Of a stretch of 6,435 bases of DNA, positions 1 through 6,435 are shown one piece after another. Location of the stretch: the IMG/VR virus record IMGVR_UViG_2778260995_000006; one strand, written 5' to 3'. The position numbers and the translations under genes were made by a program. Origin of the DNA: a virus (lineage: Duplodnaviria; Heunggongvirae; Uroviricota; Caudoviricetes). The notes beneath the pieces were generated by a model, which saw only the letters and a program-made list of their open reading frames with translations, did no database searches and was not told the origin of the DNA. How positions within the stretch are numbered: position 1 is the first letter of the stretch; each line of letters begins with the position of its first letter.

Positions 1-2294
1 CGTAACCCGGCTGTAGTCTGGCCTCCAATACGGATAATTGCGGTGTTCTGAATACAGGACCATGTGGTTTTTGTTTCTCTGGATATATGCCCGTTACTTA
101 CTGAGCACGTAGACTGCTCTGACTTTACACGCATCCCCATAACCATTTTTTCAAGCGATGCGTTTTCGTTTACCCGTCTGTTAGCTCCTCCAATATCGCA
201 ATAAGGAAATCCGTCGTAATCTGTTGAACGACCGAAGCCAAGAATAATAGCCGCTCCGGTTTGATGACCGCCGGTATCAAAAACACGTGGCGCTGCATTT
301 GGCGTTTTATACCAGTTCTTATGTACCTCACAAAGAACCGTAAAAGGAAGATTATAAAGATTATTCTTAATTGGAACTGTAACTATATCGCTTGCGCGGG
401 TCGCCGCCGTCGCTCCTGATATAATAAAAGATGATACACAAGGCCCATCTTCTACTTGTGGGGTGGCCAGATAAATATAGTCACCAGATACGGTTGCCCC
501 GCTCTGCTTAGGAGAATACTGTATCTGAGAGCCTATTTTTAACTCCCCATCAATTGCCTGAATTGTTGCCTCTGCAAAAATCCATCCGGTAGCTTCGTCC
601 TTTCTGACTCTCGCTGTAATTCTTGAGGCAGCACCGCCTGTCATATTAATTTCAAGCGTTTGTGTATCAATATACGCATCACCAAGAAAAGTTGTTGCGC
701 TACCGTCATATTTATCAAACCGGATACGCAACCTTACCTGCAGTTCTGTTTTAAAACGACATGAGGTTGTCACGTGTTTATTATCGCCTGAGACATCAAC
801 TGACTTTGTTGCAGCAATTGATGCCATATTAATGGCTGAGGTTTGCCCAATCAGAGAATCGTTGCAGACAAACTTTCCATAGGTAAAACCAAAATTATCC
901 GTCCCGGTTTCGGGCACATCCATATTTGACGATCGCCCCCAACTGGCAGGGCTTTCCGAATTGAGCATGTAGTTTGTTCTTTGCCCCTCAATAAGCAGGC
1001 CATCACGTTCAAATCGTGGCTCGTCAATGGCAGCCTCTGTCAGCACACCAGATTTGTTAATATAGGTTGCTTTCGATGCACGTTTAAACTTAACAATCTT
1101 GTCGCCAGGCATCGTTATTTCATCGTCACCAATAACAATTTTTTTATATGACGGCGAAAAGCCCGTAATCATATCCAGTGAATCGTTAAACGGTATCCAC
1201 ACATCAGGCAGTGGCTGTAAGACATATTTATACGGCTCTGCTGCCTGACTTGCATACTCTCTGGCTGCGTCTTCACTTGCTTTAGCTGCTGTCTGGCTTG
1301 CTGCCGATGCTTTCGCCGAGTTCGCCGCTGCAGTCTCGCTTGTCTTTGCATTGGTTTCACTGGTTTTTGCCGCTTTTTGACTGTTGGCTGATGCAGTGGC
1401 AGAAGCAGCCGCCGCGCTTGCAGAACCAGCTGCCGCGCTCTCGCTTTGGGCTGCTGCAACCTGGCTGTTTTTCGCCGCAGTTTCGCTGGCTTTGGCATTC
1501 GTTTCGCTGGTCTTCGCTGCCGTCTGGCTGGACTTTGCGTTAGTTTCACTCGTCTTCGCTGCTTTCTGGCTGTTAGCCGCAGCAGTTGCTGCTCCAGCTG
1601 CTGAAGTCGCAGAACCGGCTGCTGCGCTCTCGCTCTCAGCTGCTGCAGTCTGGCTGTTTTTCGCCGCAGTTTCACTGGCTTTGGCATTCGTTTCGCTGGC
1701 CTTCGCTGCCGTCTGGCTGGACTTTGCGTTGGTTTCGCTCGTCTTTGCTGCTGTCTCGCTATTTTTCGCGTTGGTTTCTGATTTTTTAGCTGCTGTCGCG
1801 GAATTTGCCGATGCAGTCTGCGAGGCCGCTGCCGCCTGTGCGCTGTTAGCTGCATTCGTTTCTGAGTTTTTCGCCGCGTTCTTCGATGATGCCGCTGCAG
1901 TTTCGGATTTCTTTGCCGCCGCTGCGCTCTGAGAGGCGGCTTCAGCGTTGCGTGCCGCTTCTTCCACCATTACCTCAAAACGACGCAATGCCTCCGGCAT
2001 GGCATCCTCTTCCGTCATGGCACCGAGAAAATCATTCAGCGTGCCTGGTCTGGAACCTTCATAGACGGTAATGGTCCCGGCATGTGAAGGCGGAAAACCT
2101 TCAACCAGCAGGGTGACGCTGTACTGGCCATACTCAACATCCATGCTGTAACGCCCGGCTTCATCCGGATTTTCAGAGGCCACCGTATTCACCAGTACCG
2201 TGGTGCTGTTACGCTTTGCTTTGAGCTGAATAGTGCAGTTCTGTATTGGTTTTCCTGCACCGTCTTTCAGCACGCCTGAAATCTGTACTGCCAT
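1..2294 (-). CDS. stf: Side tail fibre protein (Stf-like), partial: start codon at 2294, C-terminus beyond the window's left edge
   Basis: Hand translation of the minus strand from ATG 2292-2294 gives MAVQISGVLKDGAGKPIQNCTIQLKAKRNSTTVLVNTVASENPDEAGRYSMDVEYGQYSVTLLVEGFPPSHAGTITVYEGSRPGTLNDFLGAMTEEDAMPEALRRFEVMVEEAARNAEAASQ..., which I recognise as closely matching the N-terminus of lambda Stf (from memory). GGAG Shine-Dalgarno at 2300-2303 (minus strand), 5 nt before the ATG. I scanned every in-frame codon from 2294 to 3 and found no stop (764 codons), which is why the supplied track (apparently requiring an in-window stop) does not list it. Ala/Ser/Thr-rich SETNAK repeats follow, then a Cys-containing distal region ending ...WSCIQNTAIIRIGGQTTAGL at the window edge. 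Confidence 0.85.
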   Translation of the reverse strand, partial: MAVQISGVLKDGAGKPIQNCTIQLKAKRNSTTVLVNTVASENPDEAGRYSMDVEYGQYSVTLLVEGFPPSHAGTITVYEGSRPGTLNDFLGAMTEEDAMPEALRRFEVMVEEAARNAEAASQSAAAAKKSETAAASSKNAAKNSETNAANSAQAAAASQTASANSATAAKKSETNAKNSETAAKTSETNAKSSQTAAKASETNAKASETAAKNSQTAAAESESAAAGSATSAAGAATAAANSQKAAKTSETNAKSSQTAAKTSETNAKASETAAKNSQVAAAQSESAAAGSASAAAASATASANSQKAAKTSETNAKTSETAAANSAKASAASQTAAKASEDAAREYASQAAEPYKYVLQPLPDVWIPFNDSLDMITGFSPSYKKIVIGDDEITMPGDKIVKFKRASKATYINKSGVLTEAAIDEPRFERDGLLIEGQRTNYMLNSESPASWGRSSNMDVPETGTDNFGFTYGKFVCNDSLIGQTSAINMASIAATKSVDVSGDNKHVTTSCRFKTELQVRLRIRFDKYDGSATTFLGDAYIDTQTLEINMTGGAASRITARVRKDEATGWIFAEATIQAIDGELKIGSQIQYSPKQSGATVSGDYIYLATPQVEDGPCVSSFIISGATAATRASDIVTVPIKNNLYNLPFTVLCEVHKNWYKTPNAAPRVFDTGGHQTGAAIILGFGRSTDYDGFPYCDIGGANRRVNENASLEKMVMGMRVKSEQSTCSVSNGHISRETKTTWSCIQNTAIIRIGGQTTAGL
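1270..1810 (-). repeat. In-frame tandem repeat inside stf: two near-identical 189-bp (63-aa) units at 1365-1553 and 1554-1742, flanked by degenerate partial copies
   Basis: Direct sequence comparison: gcagaacc at 1420-1427 recurs at 1609-1616, and tggctgtttttcgccgcag at 1462 recurs at 1651, both offset by 189 bp. Encoded units are TSETNAKSSQTAAKASETNAKASETAAKNSQTAAAESESAAAGSATSAAGAATAAANSQKAAK and TSETNAKSSQTAAKTSETNAKASETAAKNSQVAAAQSESAAAGSASAAAASATASANSQKAAK, followed by a partial third copy TSETNAKTSETAAANSAK.... Flanking AAKKSETNAKNSETAAK is degenerate. Confidence 0.9.
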
Positions 2295-2305
2295 ATTCAC
2301 TCCAC

Positions 2306-2333
2306 AAATAAAAAAGGCGCCATTTCTGGCGCC
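2306..2333 (-). terminator. Intrinsic-terminator-like hairpin between J and stf: 7-bp GC-rich stem, 4-nt loop, then a U6 tract on the minus-strand transcript
   Basis: Plus strand 2316-2322 ggcgcca and 2327-2333 tggcgcc are perfect reverse complements around loop tttc (2323-2326). Plus-strand aaaaaa at 2310-2315 gives UUUUUU immediately 3' of the stem on the minus-strand RNA. It lies 20 bp downstream of the J stop (2353-2355) and just upstream of the stf Shine-Dalgarno. Confidence 0.55.
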
Positions 2334-2352
2334 CGTATTTGGGTTATAAAAC

Positions 2353-5300
2353 TCAACTGATACTGATACCGGCTGTTGATTTCTTCATCACGACAACAAG
2401 AAGGTCGCTGATACTGGTCGTTGGCGTCCAGTTATTAGCACCATATGAAGAAACATTGAAAGTCAGGGTGACATGACCGTGTCCGGCAGGCATATCAATG
2501 ACGGATGAAAATACCCTGCTGACATCCGTCGCGGGTTGCTGAAAGATTTCCTGTCCGTTCTTCAGCACCTGCAGCTTACAGGTTGAATACCAGTATGACT
2601 GTTGGTTATTGCTGTTGAAGTTTTCATGCTTACCACCGTGAAACAGAACGGGTGGGATTACTATCTGACGGTCAAAAGCCTGGTCATCGTACACAGTGAC
2701 CGTAATTGTACCGCTGGCATAACTGCCATTTCTCGGAAAGGCTTTTCCCACCGTTTTGACAATATCACCTTCAATCTGGTTGGCAGACAGTTTTCCCAGA
2801 ATCCGACAGTTCTGGTTAATCGTGACATTATTGAGCGTCCCGGAGTTCGCATTCACGTTACCGCTGATATCGGCATTTTTCGCCGTCAGCCGCCCGTCCG
2901 GTGTCAGGGAAAATACCGGCGGATTGCCGCCACTGGTAATGGTGGGAGCCGTCAGATACTTCAGGAACACTTCGTTCATGAATATCTGGTTACCCTGCGC
3001 CACAAACATCGGAGTTTCATTCCCGTTTGCCGGGTCAATAAACGCGATACGGTTAGCGGCAACCAGGAACTGGCTCAGTTTACCTTCCTCCGTATCCTCC
3101 ATACTAAGGCCAAGCCCCGCGACATAATGCCTGCCGTCTTCGGTCTGCTCAATTTTGACGCCCCACATGGCATTCCATTTATCGTTGGCGTCCTTCCACT
3201 CTTTCGAAAACTCCTCCAGTTTGCTGGCGTTATCCTCCGTCAGCTCGACTTTTTCCAGCAGCTCCTTGCCGAGATGGGATTCGGTTATCTGGCCTTTGAA
3301 AAAATCCAGGTAACCTTCCGCATCATCGCTCGCCCGACCGACAGCCTCCACGAATGTCGATTTGCCGACGGTGTTCACACTGCGAACGTAAAAATAATAA
3401 TCATGGCCCGGTTTGATATTGATACTGGCGGCTATCCAGTACAGCGCCGTGCCAAGATAACGCGCGCTGGTTTCAACCTGCCTGATATCCGCAATCCGAT
3501 TTTCCGAGAACCAGAACTCAAACTGTACCGTCGGATCATAAACCGCAAGATGCGGCGTGGCGGTTATCTGAAAATAGCCCGGCGTCAGCTCAATCCGCGA
3601 CGGCGCTGCCGGTGCGGCAATCAGGAACGATACCGATGCCGGATCGCCCTGCTGCCCCCACGCATTTACTGCCCGGACTGTCAGCCTGTAGTTCCCTGGC
3701 GCCAGTTGTGTGAAGCGGTATGTGGTTTCCGCCGTCCGGGCTGTGCTGACCACCCGCTCACTGCCGTCATCCGCTGCCACGGTCAGGCGAAGCATGAAAC
3801 TCACGCCCTTCACCACCTTCGGCGTGTCCCAGCGGGCCAGTACCTGATACTCCCCGCTGTCTGCAGTGACTTCGGCGGTCAGGTGCTGCACTGCTGGCGG
3901 CGTGACACCATTCACCGTGCCGCTCTGGTCACCGTCAAAGTGCGCCCCGTTATCCACGATGGCTTCTTTCTCCGGTACATGCTGCACGGCAGTGATGGCA
4001 TACGTACCGTCATCGTTCTCACGGATACTCACGCAGCGGAACAGGCGCTGGCGCAGCGTCGGCAGCTTCAGCCCCCACACGCTGTATTCAGCAACACCGT
4101 CAGGAACACGGCTCACTTTTACCTTCACGCCGTCGGTGACGGACTGAACCTCCACGCTGACCGGATTGCCACTTCCGTCAACCAGGCTTATCAGCGTGGT
4201 ACCGGAGGATGGCAGCGTGATTTCACGGTCGAGCGTCAGCGTCCGGGTCTGGCTGTTCACCGCCAGCACGCGCCCGCCGATGCTGATACCGGCATAGTCA
4301 TCATCACAGATTTCAATGACATCGCCCGGTACATGGCGAAGCCCTTCGGCCCCCACGCTGAAATCCACGGTCTGCGTTTCCAGCAGTTCCGTTTTAATCA
4401 GCCACAGCCCGGCGCGGTGTGCCTGCCCCCGGCTGGTACAGCCAAAGGCATCCATCTTCGTGACGTTACGACCGTAACGGGCAATGGCCTGCGTGTCCTC
4501 CACAAGCTCTGTCGCCGTCTCCCAGCCGTTATTCGGGTCAATCCAGTTCACCTCAACGGCATTATGGCGGTCCTTCAGGGCGCTGAAGCTGTAGCGGAAC
4601 GGCGCGCCATCATCCGGCATCACCACATTACTGCGGTTATAGGTCCACACCTTATCCGATGGCCGGTCCTGCACGAACGTCAGCGTCTGCCCGTTCCATA
4701 CCGGCATACAGCGCATCGCCGAGCAGAAATCGCTGAGCACATCCCACGCCTTGCGCTGTGTGGTCAGCCAGGCATTACAGGTGATGCGCGGCTCCGTGCT
4801 GCCAAAGCCGTCCGGCACCGACTGGTCGCAGTAGTGGCCGATAACATACAGCGCCCATTTATCCACATCTGCCGCACCAAGACGTTTCCCCATGCCGTAG
4901 CGCGGGTGGGTCAGCATATCCCACAGACACCAGGCCATGTTGTTGCTGTATGCCGGTTTAAACGTTCCGTCCCAGATACCGCTGTATTGCCGCGTCTGCG
5001 GGTTATAATTCGACGGCACCTGCAGAATACGCCCGCGCAGATGATAATTACGGCTCACCTGCTGGCTGCCGAACTGCTCCGAGTCCACCTGCACGCCGAC
5101 CAGTGCCGTGTTCGGGTAGCACTGTTTCACATCGATGATTTCGGTGTATGACGACCAGAGCGTTTTGTTCTGCAGCTGGTCTGTGGTGCTGTCCGGCGTC
5201 ATCCTGCGCATCCGGATATTAAACGGGCGCGGCGGCAGGTTATCCACCACCACTGAGGCCAGATACTGCGACGTGGTTTTGCCCTTAATGGTGATGTCTT

Positions 5301-5751
5301 TTTCTGTCACCCAGCCACCGTTACGTTGTATCTGAACCAGCAGGCGGACTTCCGACGGATTCCTGTCCCCCTTTGAGGTGGTTTCCACCAGTGCCTGCAC
5401 ACCGAAGGTAAAGCGCAGACGGTCGATGTTTGCAGACGTGATGGTCCGGGTAATCGGCGTGTCGTACTTCACTTCCGTACCCAGCACCGTCTCGGAGCCG
5501 GAGGATTCAAATCCCTCCGGCGGTGTCTGCTCCTGCTCACCTGCCCGGAAAACCACCGTGACACCGGAGATATTGGTATTCCCCTCACTGTCCAGCACTG
5601 GCGTACTGTTCAGCAGCACACTTTTTAATCCGTCCACCGGACCTTCAATCGGCCCTTCGCTGATGGCGTCTATCACGCTCAGCATCTGCGTGGACTTCAG
5701 GTTGTCCTTCGCTTCGCGCGGGGTATGCCCCTTACTGCTGCCTTTACCCAT
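2353..5751 (-). CDS. J: Tail tip / host-specificity protein J (central tail fibre), complete, 1132 aa
   Basis: Supplied ORF of 1132 aa starting [54 protein letters not shown]..., which I recognise as near-identical to lambda gpJ over most of its length and of the same length (from memory). ATG at 5749-5751 is the first start after an in-frame stop at 5755-5757; GGAG and GAGGA Shine-Dalgarno motifs lie upstream on the minus strand. The last ~158 aa (about 2353-2830) appear divergent from lambda J. Confidence 0.95.
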
Positions 5752-5811: not shown

Positions 5812-6435
5812 TCAACGACCAATCACCACAACCTGACCACCGTCCCCCTCGTCTGCCGTGCTGATCTCCTGAGAAACCACCCGCGACCCCACGCGCATTT
5901 CACCGTACAGAACAGGCAGAACATTGCCCTGGGCAACCATGTTATCCAGTGAGGAGAAATAGGTGTTCTGCTTACCGTTATCCGTTGTCTGTGTACGGGG
6001 AGTTCTGGCTTTCGGTGCCAGCATCTGCGCCACACCACCAAGTACCATACTGGCACCGAGAGAAAACAGAATGCCGGTCATACCACCGGCCCCAATGGCT
6101 GTCCCCCATGCTGCAAGGGTGGCTCCGGCGGTAAAGAATGATCCGGCAATGGCGGCTGCCCCCAGGACAATCTGGAATACGCCACCTGACTTGGCCCCGG
6201 CGGCTCTGGGAACGATATGAATCACAGCGCCGTCAGGCAGAGCCTCATGTAACTGCGCCGTTAATCCGGACGTGCTGACATCCTGCCCGGCAATACGTAC
6301 CTGATACCAGCCGTCGCTCAGTTTCTGACGAAACGAAGGGAGCTGTGTGGCCAGCGCCCGGATGGCTTCAGCCCCCGTTTTCACACGAAGGTCGATGCGG
6401 CGGCCAAATCGTTGTAAATCCCCGTAAAGGCAGAT
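5812..6435 (-). CDS. I: Tail assembly protein I, partial: N-terminal residues beyond the window's right edge, stop at 5812-5814
   Basis: The supplied ORF 5812..6384 (VKTGAEAIRALATQLPSFRQKLSDGWYQVRIAGQDV...GGQVVVIGR) begins at an internal GTG. Hand translation of 6385-6435 on the minus strand continues in frame without stops as ICLYGDLQRFGRRIDLR, matching my recollection of the lambda gpI N-terminal region. A Gly/Ala-rich hydrophobic stretch (GAAAIAGSFFTAGATLAAWGTAIGAGGMTGILFSLGASMVLGGVAQ) is present. Gene order I then J on the same strand matches lambda. Confidence 0.9.
   Translation of the reverse strand: MCLYGDLQRFGRRIDLRVKTGAEAIRALATQLPSFRQKLSDGWYQVRIAGQDVSTSGLTAQLHEALPDGAVIHIVPRAAGAKSGGVFQIVLGAAAIAGSFFTAGATLAAWGTAIGAGGMTGILFSLGASMVLGGVAQMLAPKARTPRTQTTDNGKQNTYFSSLDNMVAQGNVLPVLYGEMRVGSRVVSQEISTADEGDGGQVVVIGR

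Follow-up and report, generated by a model that had tools for sequence, protein, structure and literature searches.

The side tail fibre gene (stf) of a lambdoid Escherichia coli prophage carries in its shaft a tandem, in-frame duplication of nine heptads. The explanation that best covers the observations as a whole, and which we consider probable, is that an old duplication within a coiled-coil rod has been followed by loss of one unit through recombination or slippage. The window, that is, the whole stretch of 6,435 nucleotides that was analysed, is the tail-tip end of the prophage. According to the list of open reading frames, gpI, gpJ and stf follow one another in this order, all on the minus strand, and a near-identical prophage in strain MLI121 has the gene order tape measure, M, L, K, I, J, stf. 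The locus was identified through its gpJ-type gene context. The stf gene runs past the start of the window, which by translation includes 764 of its approximately 790 codons. The gap between gpJ and stf measures 58 nt and has a terminator-like hairpin inside it; in phage 21 a terminator is annotated at the corresponding place. Two long open reading frames that overlap the shaft, one on the plus strand (1384-1932) and one in the wrong frame of the minus strand (1169-1855), are not genes and were dismissed as by-products of repetitive GCN-rich codons.

This stf is of the lambda type, with the repeat inside its shaft. It is placed downstream of gpJ within a lambdoid tail module, its product has a collar homologous to lambda Stf residues 1-94, and a long, predicted helical rod comes after a short post-collar linker. 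The protein matches the Pfam family PF08400 (phage_tail_N, "prophage tail fibre N-terminal") over residues 1-131 (E 2.7e-66) and PHROG 1419 over residues 1-763, and the copy in MLI121, 99.9% identical, is annotated as a 790-aa "prophage tail fiber N-terminal domain-containing protein". BLASTP gave 57% identity to lambda orf-401 over the first 293 aa (E 2e-85); the alignment has no gaps from residue 1 to about 250 and stays in register through the shaft. Residues 1-94 were matched by phmmer to the "Tail fiber protein" of PDB entries 9e7m/9mgh (9e7m chain Ta; E 9.2e-49), and the same residues of the Ur-lambda Stf constitute the collar domain (PMC12617516). The role of this domain is attachment of the fibre to the tail tip. 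The distal part (residues 354-764) is presumed to be the receptor-binding region; the NCBIfam domain NF048003 (GTA_spike_fiber) was recognised in residues 434-634 (E 3.1e-13), and at least five unrelated distal domains are attached to the same shaft in different proteins. An NCBIfam match to DnaX was far below the cut-off, and weak matches (E 2e-4 to 3e-3) between the shaft and either depolymerases or the RNA polymerase II CTD reflect low complexity; all of these were dismissed. The coordinates of the features are collected in Table 1.

Table 1. Features of the window; positions are those of the whole stretch.
Feature	Position	Strand	Remarks
stf-like side tail fibre gene	1..2294	-	ATG at 2294; frame ends at base 3
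Distal Stf, aa 354-764	3..1235	-	begins at conserved junction PYKYVLQPLPDVWIPFNDSL
Proximal shaft, 35-heptad array, aa 109-353	1236..1970	-	S-x-x-A/N-A-x-x, no indel
Partial third copy, SETNAKT SETAAAN, two heptads downstream	1320..1361	-	17/21 and 16/21 nt vs unit B heptads 1-2
Repeat unit B, aa 249-311, 9 heptads	1362..1550	-	diagnostic tail SASAAAA SATASAN SQKAAKT
Repeat unit A, aa 186-248, 9 heptads	1551..1739	-	diagnostic tail SATSAAG AATAAAN SQKAAKT
One extra matching heptad upstream of unit A	1740-1760	-	
Stf N-terminal collar domain, aa 1-94	2013..2294	-	phmmer to PDB 9e7m/9mgh
Terminator-like hairpin	2305..2334	-	GGGCGCC AGAAAT GGCGCC + T-run
gpJ-type central tail fibre / tail tip gene	2353..5751	-	1132 aa; ORF list; gpJ annotation in near-identical MLI121 prophage
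gpI-type tail assembly protein gene	5812..6384	-	190 aa; ORF list; MLI121 annotation "tail assembly protein"

The shaft keeps an unbroken seven-residue periodicity over 35 heptads with zero indels, and its sub-repeats are 14-residue elements of the form SETNAKx-SETAAKx. The conserved heptad positions are occupied by Ser (position 1), Ala or Asn (position 4) and Ala (position 5), small residues in contrast to the Leu, Ile or Val that are usual at the a and d core positions; alanine-rich cores of trimers are known. Because Ser and Ala/Asn are conserved rather than large hydrophobic residues, the coiled-coil assignment rests on the periodicity, on the helix prediction and on homology with lambda. 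A single-chain AF2 model, used for secondary structure only (overall pLDDT 61, pTM 0.24), was all helix over residues 101-351 except for one break, with helices at residues 6-133 and 140-256 of the modelled fragment and a mean pLDDT within them of about 60-75, a moderate confidence. The single break may be an effect of folding one chain alone. In the Ur-lambda model, residues 102-393 of Stf form a trimeric proximal coiled coil; on the virion this protein is a trimer, with four fibres per tail (PMC12617516). The shaft described here is thus presumably an alpha-helical, proximal coiled-coil rod, predicted to be trimeric by homology to the Ur-lambda Stf.

Within this array a unit of 189 nt, equal to nine heptads or 63 aa, recurs in frame about 2.33 times over positions 1320-1760, and TRF reported a period of 189 with 1.8 copies and 90% matches at 1420-1760. 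The original prediction had placed a tandem in-frame duplication in the interval 1270-1810, and such a duplication does exist there, with the signal at a lag of 189 nt far above chance. The unit is, as had been proposed, a multiple of three, and its 189 nt comprise whole codons as well as whole heptads. Units A and B agree at 157 of 189 nucleotides (83%; 32 positions differ) and at 55 of 63 residues (87%; eight differ), and the longest exact run common to both is 30 nt. Identity amounts to 91% in the head (heptads 1-6) and to 68.5% in the tail (heptads 7-9), and the term "near-perfect" used at the outset is too strong. Degenerate copies had also been reported on both sides. The flanks do belong to the same family of heptad and 14-residue repeats, but they are not recognisable as 189-nt units, and their nucleotide identity is at most 69% at lags of 2 or 11 heptads. 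As the whole shaft is made of similar heptads and any in-phase lag yields about 50% nucleotide identity, the periodicity might be taken for a by-product of a low-complexity heptad array with no discrete duplication in it. This reading is refuted, with a vanishingly small residual probability: in a 105-nt segment, 98 of 105 bases match at a lag of nine heptads, as against 51.7 ± 6.2 and a maximum of 72 at the other in-phase lags, and the length difference of exactly 63 aa found between alleles maps to the 189-nt unit. Over their best 144 nt the units reach 91.7% identity; the background is 49.7 ± 5.4% and at most 65%.

The general risk that tandem repeats pose in short-read assemblies had raised the suspicion that the second copy is an artefact, a repeat collapsed or expanded by the assembler, with a true number other than two. 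Misassembly has now been excluded, with an extremely small residual probability, by the occurrence of the same two-unit structure in about a thousand complete genomes. The 1145-nt 5' region of stf that includes both units was found with 99.9% identity and the same length in the complete genomes of MLI121 and MLI114, and all full-coverage matches listed (93-99.9% identity; 93-99.7% for the others) leave the length unchanged. At least 80% of this structure is covered in 961 complete E. coli genomes. Unit-A-specific sequence was found by BLAST in 1016 of 5426 complete genomes; the counts of 1016 and 980 genomes, from unit-A-specific, unit-B-specific and one-unit queries, do not separate the one-unit and two-unit classes. 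Several independently sequenced phage genomes also carry the two-unit structure. A and B differ by 17% (32 of 189 positions) and match exactly over 30 nt at most, so that ordinary short reads can tell them apart. Moreover, many Stf fragments from draft genomes include the whole two-unit shaft and break off at 470-640 aa, which indicates that assemblers cross the repeat and fail later.

The likeness of the units had also been attributed to a recent duplication or to ongoing concerted evolution. Between alleles, A and A share 177-188 of 189 nucleotides and B and B 177-187, whereas A and B share 153-164; identity among alleles is 96-97% for A-A and B-B and never above about 87% for A-B. In their DNA, A and B of one allele are just as alike as A and B of different alleles, both in the head (0.910 and 0.913) and in the tail (0.685 and 0.686), and this comparison gave no sign of homogenisation within a genome. 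The duplication must therefore have arisen before these phages diverged. Fifteen A/B differences are fixed in all seven two-unit alleles examined. The same pair is also found in phages whose distal domains are unrelated, in Escherichia species other than E. coli and on phage-plasmids, so the duplication is older than that spread. The duplication is old, with A and B as separately conserved lineages whose heads have diverged by 9% and whose tails have diverged by about 31%. A single duplication of uniform age does not account for this gap (91% versus 68.5% identity). A recent origin in this lineage, or gene conversion that keeps the units alike, would agree with the 91.7% identity of their first 144 nt, with the identical fifth heptads of A and B in P0036, P0045 and P0030, and with fifth-heptad variants common to the A and B positions. 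There is in addition a tiny excess at the protein level, with A-B matches of 56.6/63 within alleles and 56.0/63 between them, but this permutation test (p = 0.0002; 48 two-unit proteins) relied on cluster representatives that are not independent. Against the equal DNA identities, the 96-97% conservation of each unit, the 15 fixed sites and the wide occurrence of the same pair, this reading is largely refuted and is quite improbable.

Copy number was compared among relatives and varies by exactly one unit. Among 112 protein clusters with both anchors, 47 have shafts of 35 heptads (245 aa) and 54 have shafts of 26 heptads (182 aa), so both forms are common and copy number is not invariant in related genomes. 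The anchor-to-anchor length is a multiple of seven in 107 of the 112 representatives and not in the other five. Head-to-tail copy number differs even among close relatives: phage IdasGreatGrand is exactly nine heptads shorter than 2G7b, ev207, PhiR49_1, PhiR46_1, MLI121 and the window, and the distal 411 aa of the one-unit proteins P0110, P0063, P0048 and P0064 are 99.3-99.8% identical to those of the window. Other in-frame variants, between sub-repeats, occur in PhiR40_1, DETEC-S566 and EFF60. WB61 and Esc1 had been considered one-unit alleles from single-piece matches to a one-unit query, but inspection shows two units. A three-unit form was absent among 120 protein representatives, and a synthetic three-unit probe (tail A, head, tail A) found no full-length single-piece match among the best 25 records of 5426 complete genomes; what it matched best were pLF82-like plasmids with two-unit shafts, and a pure-A single. 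Searches of the literature yielded nothing specific on this repeat or on length variation of Stf.

Most of the short alleles examined at the DNA level are chimeric, with a junction inside the repeat. At the 15 fixed A/B sites, six one-unit alleles read A followed by BBBBBBBBBBBBBB at the DNA level; the head contributes one fixed site plus the heptad-5 variants, and with a single fixed diagnostic site the "A head" of these B-like singles rests on little data. P0051 is all A at the 15 sites, and a second pure-A single was found in the complete chromosome of strain FFFEB2. The fifth heptads of the singles are both A-typical (SQNAAAE, SQAAAAE) and B-typical (SQDAAAQ/E), which implies several crossover points. 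The suggestion that unequal recombination would change the number of units fits these data in that the one-unit alleles look like the expected residue of recombination between A and B; it cannot be shown for all alleles which way the change went. The mechanism that we infer is repeated deletion of one unit, by recombination or by slippage during replication, at the heads with their 91% identity. The rod would then have 26 heptads, and its remaining unit would begin as A and end as B. Less often, events close to the heptad-9 junction would leave a pure A unit, and events between shorter sub-repeats could give rods of 20, 24, 28, 31, 33 and 34 heptads. Gain or loss of whole heptads should preserve both the reading frame and the coiled-coil register and change rod length alone, and the collar domain and the receptor-binding end would be unaffected. 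As the rod is one low-complexity heptad array, whole-heptad changes are likely to be tolerated. Unequal crossing-over should also yield a reciprocal three-unit product, and its lack among the best 25 records of the 5426 complete genomes makes selection or a mechanism biased towards deletion more likely than simple reciprocal exchange.

The one-unit form might instead be ancestral, with the two-unit form as a later insertion and the singles as survivors rather than deletion products. A single-unit state must indeed have come before the duplication, 50 of the 54 single-unit representatives are alike (B-like) in heptads 7-8, and the three-unit search just described gives no direct evidence of present-day expansion. 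Under this order of events, nevertheless, the 63-nt tail of A would have to have fixed 14 changes and that of B zero, with heads still 91% alike. It leaves unexplained the pure-A singles P0051 and FFFEB2, the singles in which a B tail goes with a fifth heptad typical of A (IdasGreatGrand, P0048, P0071), and one-unit distal domains 99.3-99.8% identical to those of two-unit alleles, a partial sign that the one-unit alleles are scattered among the two-unit ones. It is therefore considered unlikely, and loss of a unit from an old two-unit shaft is preferred.

The closest known structure is that of the Ur-lambda Stf (PDB 9e7m/9mgh; Yu et al., Sci Adv 2025, PMC12617516). As in Ur-lambda, stf is placed after gpJ, the collar is homologous, and the Ala/Ser/Thr-rich heptad region begins at the same residue. 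The rod is shorter here (about 250 versus about 290 residues) and includes the duplicated nine heptads A and B, for which lambda has no counterpart of this form. Nor is the distal part related to the gp37-like, OmpC-binding end of lambda; it begins at the PYKYVLQPLPDVW junction and carries the GTA_spike_fiber-type domain, and no lom gene lies between J and stf. Temperate coliphages, annotated merely as having tail fibre or side tail fibre proteins, encode the same collar and shaft at 91-98% nucleotide identity, several of them with the same distal domain. Two-unit Stfs were found in 2G7b, HannyBb, Tritos, PhiR63_1, ev207, PhiR49_1 and PhiR46_1, and a one-unit Stf in IdasGreatGrand; among the other coliphages the differences are point substitutions, the distal domain and the presence or absence of lom. 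Motifs are also duplicated, lost and exchanged in other phage fibre shafts built of repeats, such as the long tail fibre proteins of T-even phages. Those shafts are modular rods that change length in whole repeats with both ends intact, and their repeats are mostly beta-structured, whereas the rod considered here appears to be a heptad-based helical bundle with a Ser/Ala small-residue pattern.

The duplication is thus an old, ordinary and expected kind of variation in a repetitive structural protein, and it leaves the view of these fibres unchanged. With 63 residues at approximately 0.15 nm each, one unit probably makes a difference of about 9.4 nm to the length of the proximal rod, roughly 36 versus 27 nm. 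The first contact of a phage with its host, which is reversible, is made by the side tail fibres, and these accelerate adsorption. Rod length sets the reach of the receptor-binding end and may influence adsorption. Rod length could even be a selected, discrete trait rather than the outcome of neutral slippage, with 26 and 35 heptads suited to different depths of O-antigen or capsule. This is hinted at by identical distal domains on both rod lengths and by the length of exactly 26 heptads at which no fewer than three deletions of different structure converge (an A head with a B tail, pure A, and an unrelated deletion from B3 to D3 in P0110), although we regard it as unlikely. If true, the same receptor-binding domain would be held at different distances (about 27 and 36 nm) from the tail tip, and the repeat architecture would let phage populations switch between two rod lengths. 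In either case, the locus offers natural pairs of fibres that differ solely by a 63-residue block of the rod, with which the influence of fibre length on host range and adsorption rate can be tested, and it may guide the engineering of lambda-type fibres of chosen length.

All real genes of the window lie on the minus strand, and the one carrying the repeat was correctly identified as stf. This identification is supported by its product, which matches Pfam family PF08400 ('prophage tail fibre N-terminal'; E 2.7e-66), PHROG 1419 (all 764 residues) and, at E 9.2e-49, residues 1-94 of the solved 'Tail fiber protein' of Ur-lambda (PDB 9e7m/9mgh). BLASTP also aligns the product with orf-401, which is the N-terminal part of Stf in lambda, at 57% identity (293 aa, E 2e-85; without gaps from residue 1 to about 250). 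In addition, the complete E. coli MLI121 genome contains a copy with 99.9% identity, a 790-aa gene within a full lambdoid tail module. No lom gene lies between gpJ and stf in the window, as in phage 21 and ev207 and unlike lambda, 2G7b, IdasGreatGrand and others, where lom occupies this position; in phage 21, a terminator is annotated at the position equivalent to the window's hairpin. Two other open frames through the repeat, of 182 aa (1384-1932, plus strand) and 228 aa (1169-1855, minus strand, wrong frame), were rejected as by-products of the repetitive Ala/Ser codons; the lambda reference annotation has an equivalent antisense 'orf206b' within orf-401.

Features of the window and of its stf gene
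Feature	Position	Strand	Remarks
gpI-type gene	5812-6384	-	
gpJ-type tail-tip gene	2353-5751	-	1132 aa
Terminator-like hairpin	2305-2334	-	strong; 8-bp stem, 6 GC pairs, T-run; in gpJ-stf gap 2295-2352
stf open frame	starts 2294, runs off window start	-	764 residues; 58-nt gap after gpJ gene
Unit A	1551-1739	-	Stf aa 186-248
Unit B	1362-1550	-	Stf aa 249-311
GTA_spike_fiber-type domain (NCBIfam)	Stf aa 434-634	-	E 3e-13; in distal part aa 354-764 (window 3-1235)

Residues 109-353 of Stf consist of an unbroken run of 35 heptads (pattern S-x-x-A/N-A-x-x), with zero indels. Over this whole shaft, a 189-nt lag (nine heptads) gives an identity of 0.667, versus 0.47-0.55 at all other multiples of 21, and 105-nt segments reach 98/105 at this lag, versus 51.7 +/- 6.2 (maximum 72) at all other lags. 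The best 144 nt (1609-1752 versus 1420-1563) are 91.7% identical on a background of 49.7 +/- 5.4%, and TRF independently reported a period of 189 with 1.8 copies and 90% matches at 1420-1760. Matching heptads extend beyond the units, one before A and two after B, giving about 2.33 copies over 1320-1760. The tandem duplication is thus real and in frame, but the original prediction of a near-perfect repeat was too strong, as A and B differ at 32/189 nt and 8/63 aa and their longest common exact run is 30 nt. Heptads 1-6 of the units (the head) are about 91% identical and heptads 7-9 (the tail) only about 68%, tail A being SATSAAG AATAAAN SQKAAKT and tail B SASAAAA SATASAN SQKAAKT. The shaft flanks, described earlier as degenerate copies, are members of the same family of heptad and 14-residue repeats (nucleotide identity no higher than 69%) but contain no recognisable further 189-nt units.

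The suspicion that copy number had been misassembled was not borne out. The 1145-nt 5' part of stf, both units included, has full-length matches of the same size at 99.9% identity in two complete genomes, at 99.2-99.7% in eight more, and at 93-98%, with size unchanged, in all other full-coverage records sampled. At least 80% of this query is covered in 961 complete genomes, unit-A-specific sequence is present in 1016/5426, and the two-unit shaft occurs in the independently sequenced phages 2G7b, HannyBb, Tritos, PhiR63_1, ev207, PhiR49_1 and PhiR46_1. Many Stf fragments from draft genomes contain the whole two-unit shaft before breaking, which indicates that assemblers cross the repeat without trouble. 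Most two-unit draft hits are 'partial' and end 470-640 aa in, contig breaks clustering in the distal domain region and not in the 189-nt repeat, probably because several prophages per genome share parts of that region.

Whole-unit variation among relatives, also anticipated, was confirmed. Among the best 120 protein-cluster representatives, 112 had both anchors flanking the shaft, and the anchor-to-anchor length was 245 aa (35 heptads, two units) in 47 and 182 aa (26 heptads, one unit) in 54. Shafts of 24, 28, 31, 33 or 34 heptads had one or two representatives each, and in 5/112 the length was not a multiple of 7. Collar, shaft and distal junction are shared by phage IdasGreatGrand, which has exactly nine heptads fewer, and the distal 411 aa of the one-unit representatives P0110, P0063, P0048 and P0064 are 99.3-99.8% identical to those of the window, so that length differs between otherwise near-identical fibres. 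PhiR40_1 and DETEC-S566 are six heptads shorter than the one-unit form, and E. coli EFF60 lacks heptads A5-A8; these changes map to SETNAKx-SETAAxx sub-repeats. The EFF60 stf is annotated as separate fragments near IS200 and IS3 elements and that of E. coli WB61 is truncated within unit B, both being decayed prophage copies. A synthetic three-unit probe (tail A, head, tail A) had no single-piece full-length match among the best 25 records of 5426 complete genomes.

The duplication had been taken as recent or under ongoing concerted evolution, a view contradicted by comparison between alleles: A resembles B equally within and between alleles, and A-A and B-B identities are much higher (see table).

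Nucleotide identity between units in six two-unit alleles
Comparison	Whole unit	Head	Tail
A vs A, between alleles	177-188/189	0.958	0.974
B vs B, between alleles	177-187/189	0.966	0.969
A vs B, same allele	153-164/189	0.910	0.685
A vs B, different alleles	153-164/189	0.913	0.686

In seven alleles, A and B show 15 fixed differences, one of them located in the head and the other 14 in the tail. Means for 48 two-unit proteins were 59.0/63 (A-A), 61.0/63 (B-B) and 56.0-56.6/63 (A-B); a small within-allele A-B excess (permutation p = 0.0002, the cluster representatives being non-independent) is due in part to a few alleles whose fifth heptads match. The units have undergone no more than sporadic conversion. 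At least five unrelated distal domains are found attached to the A/B pair, which also occurs in other Escherichia species and, following another N-terminal domain, on pLF82-like plasmids of 106 kb, so the duplication predates this whole spread. Between the two units of the window (1362-1739), heptads 1-6 have diverged by about 9% and heptads 7-9 by about 31%, a strong imbalance that one duplication event of uniform age fails to account for; the heads may have undergone an old conversion, or A's tail may be of mosaic origin.

One-unit alleles would arise by repeated loss of a unit through recombination or slippage between the similar heads, with an occasional crossover at the shared SQKAAKT-SETNAK junction. 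Six of them (IdasGreatGrand, P0063, P0095, P0053, P0071, P0106) match A at the single head site and B at each of the 14 tail sites, a chimeric reading that depends on one fixed head marker; P0051 carries A at all 15, a second pure-A single is found in the complete chromosome of strain FFFEB2, and heptad 5 of the singles is A-typical or B-typical. Together these patterns represent at least three crossover intervals. The state before duplication must have been a single unit, and some one-unit alleles might be its survivors; this is improbable, as it requires that A's tail acquired 14 fixed changes while B's acquired none, and it leaves the pure-A singles unexplained. P0110 (728 aa, 1.2-Mb contig) has a different 63-residue deletion, from mid-B3 to mid-D3, joining SETNA to AA SQTAAKA. 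Its ends are non-homologous at a lag of this size (window, 6/21 nt) and the result is still exactly 26 heptads, which could be coincidence or selection for length. That the two dominant lengths were selected to match host surface depth is hinted at by identical distal domains on both lengths and by the convergence of three deletion structures, including P0110, on 26 heptads, but is unlikely.

Ur-lambda Stf, the closest known object, was divided into five parts, with residues 1-91 as collar domain, 394-422 as hinge, 423-525 as distal coiled-coil domain and a receptor-binding domain beyond, each fibre being a trimer (PMC12617516, 2025). The window's heptad array starts at the same residue as that of lambda Stf and aligns in register. 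The 189-nt repeat is located in the side fibre's proximal rod. An AlphaFold2 single-chain model (18-sequence alignment; low confidence, used for secondary structure only) is helical over aa 101-351, at pLDDT about 60-75 in helices, and by homology the rod would be a trimeric coiled coil. The model's helix is interrupted only at aa 229-234 (about 1593-1610 in the window; pLDDT about 44), a break that coincides with glycine-containing heptads of unit A (SATSAAG A); it may be a single-chain folding effect or a flexible point unique to two-unit fibres. Conserved heptad positions hold Ser and Ala/Asn, not large hydrophobic residues. A helical coiled coil rises about 0.15 nm per residue; one unit would thus add about 9.4 nm, giving a proximal rod of about 36 nm with two units and about 27 nm with one.

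Collar domain, gene position and rod place the window's Stf in the Ur-lambda family; it differs in rod length, the A/B duplication and an unrelated distal part. Same-shaft proteins all join their distal domains at PYKYVLQPLPDVWIPFNDS, a conserved junction that resembles a recombination seam. On E. coli TUM12368 plasmid pMTY12368_pLF82 (106 kb), CDS 1928-4282 carries the A+B heptad shaft and a PYKYVLQPLPDVW junction; its N-terminal domain is entirely different and it lies downstream of a TipJ-family gene. The match recurs on many 106,011-bp plasmids, and pLF82-like plasmids are probably phage-plasmids. A literature search found no published description of this Stf length polymorphism; changes in length by whole repeats are familiar from repetitive fibre shafts. 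Since variants gain or lose whole heptads, reading frame and helical register are kept, and the occurrence of shaft and junction behind a different N-terminal domain indicates that the shaft is a module exchanged between unrelated tail types.
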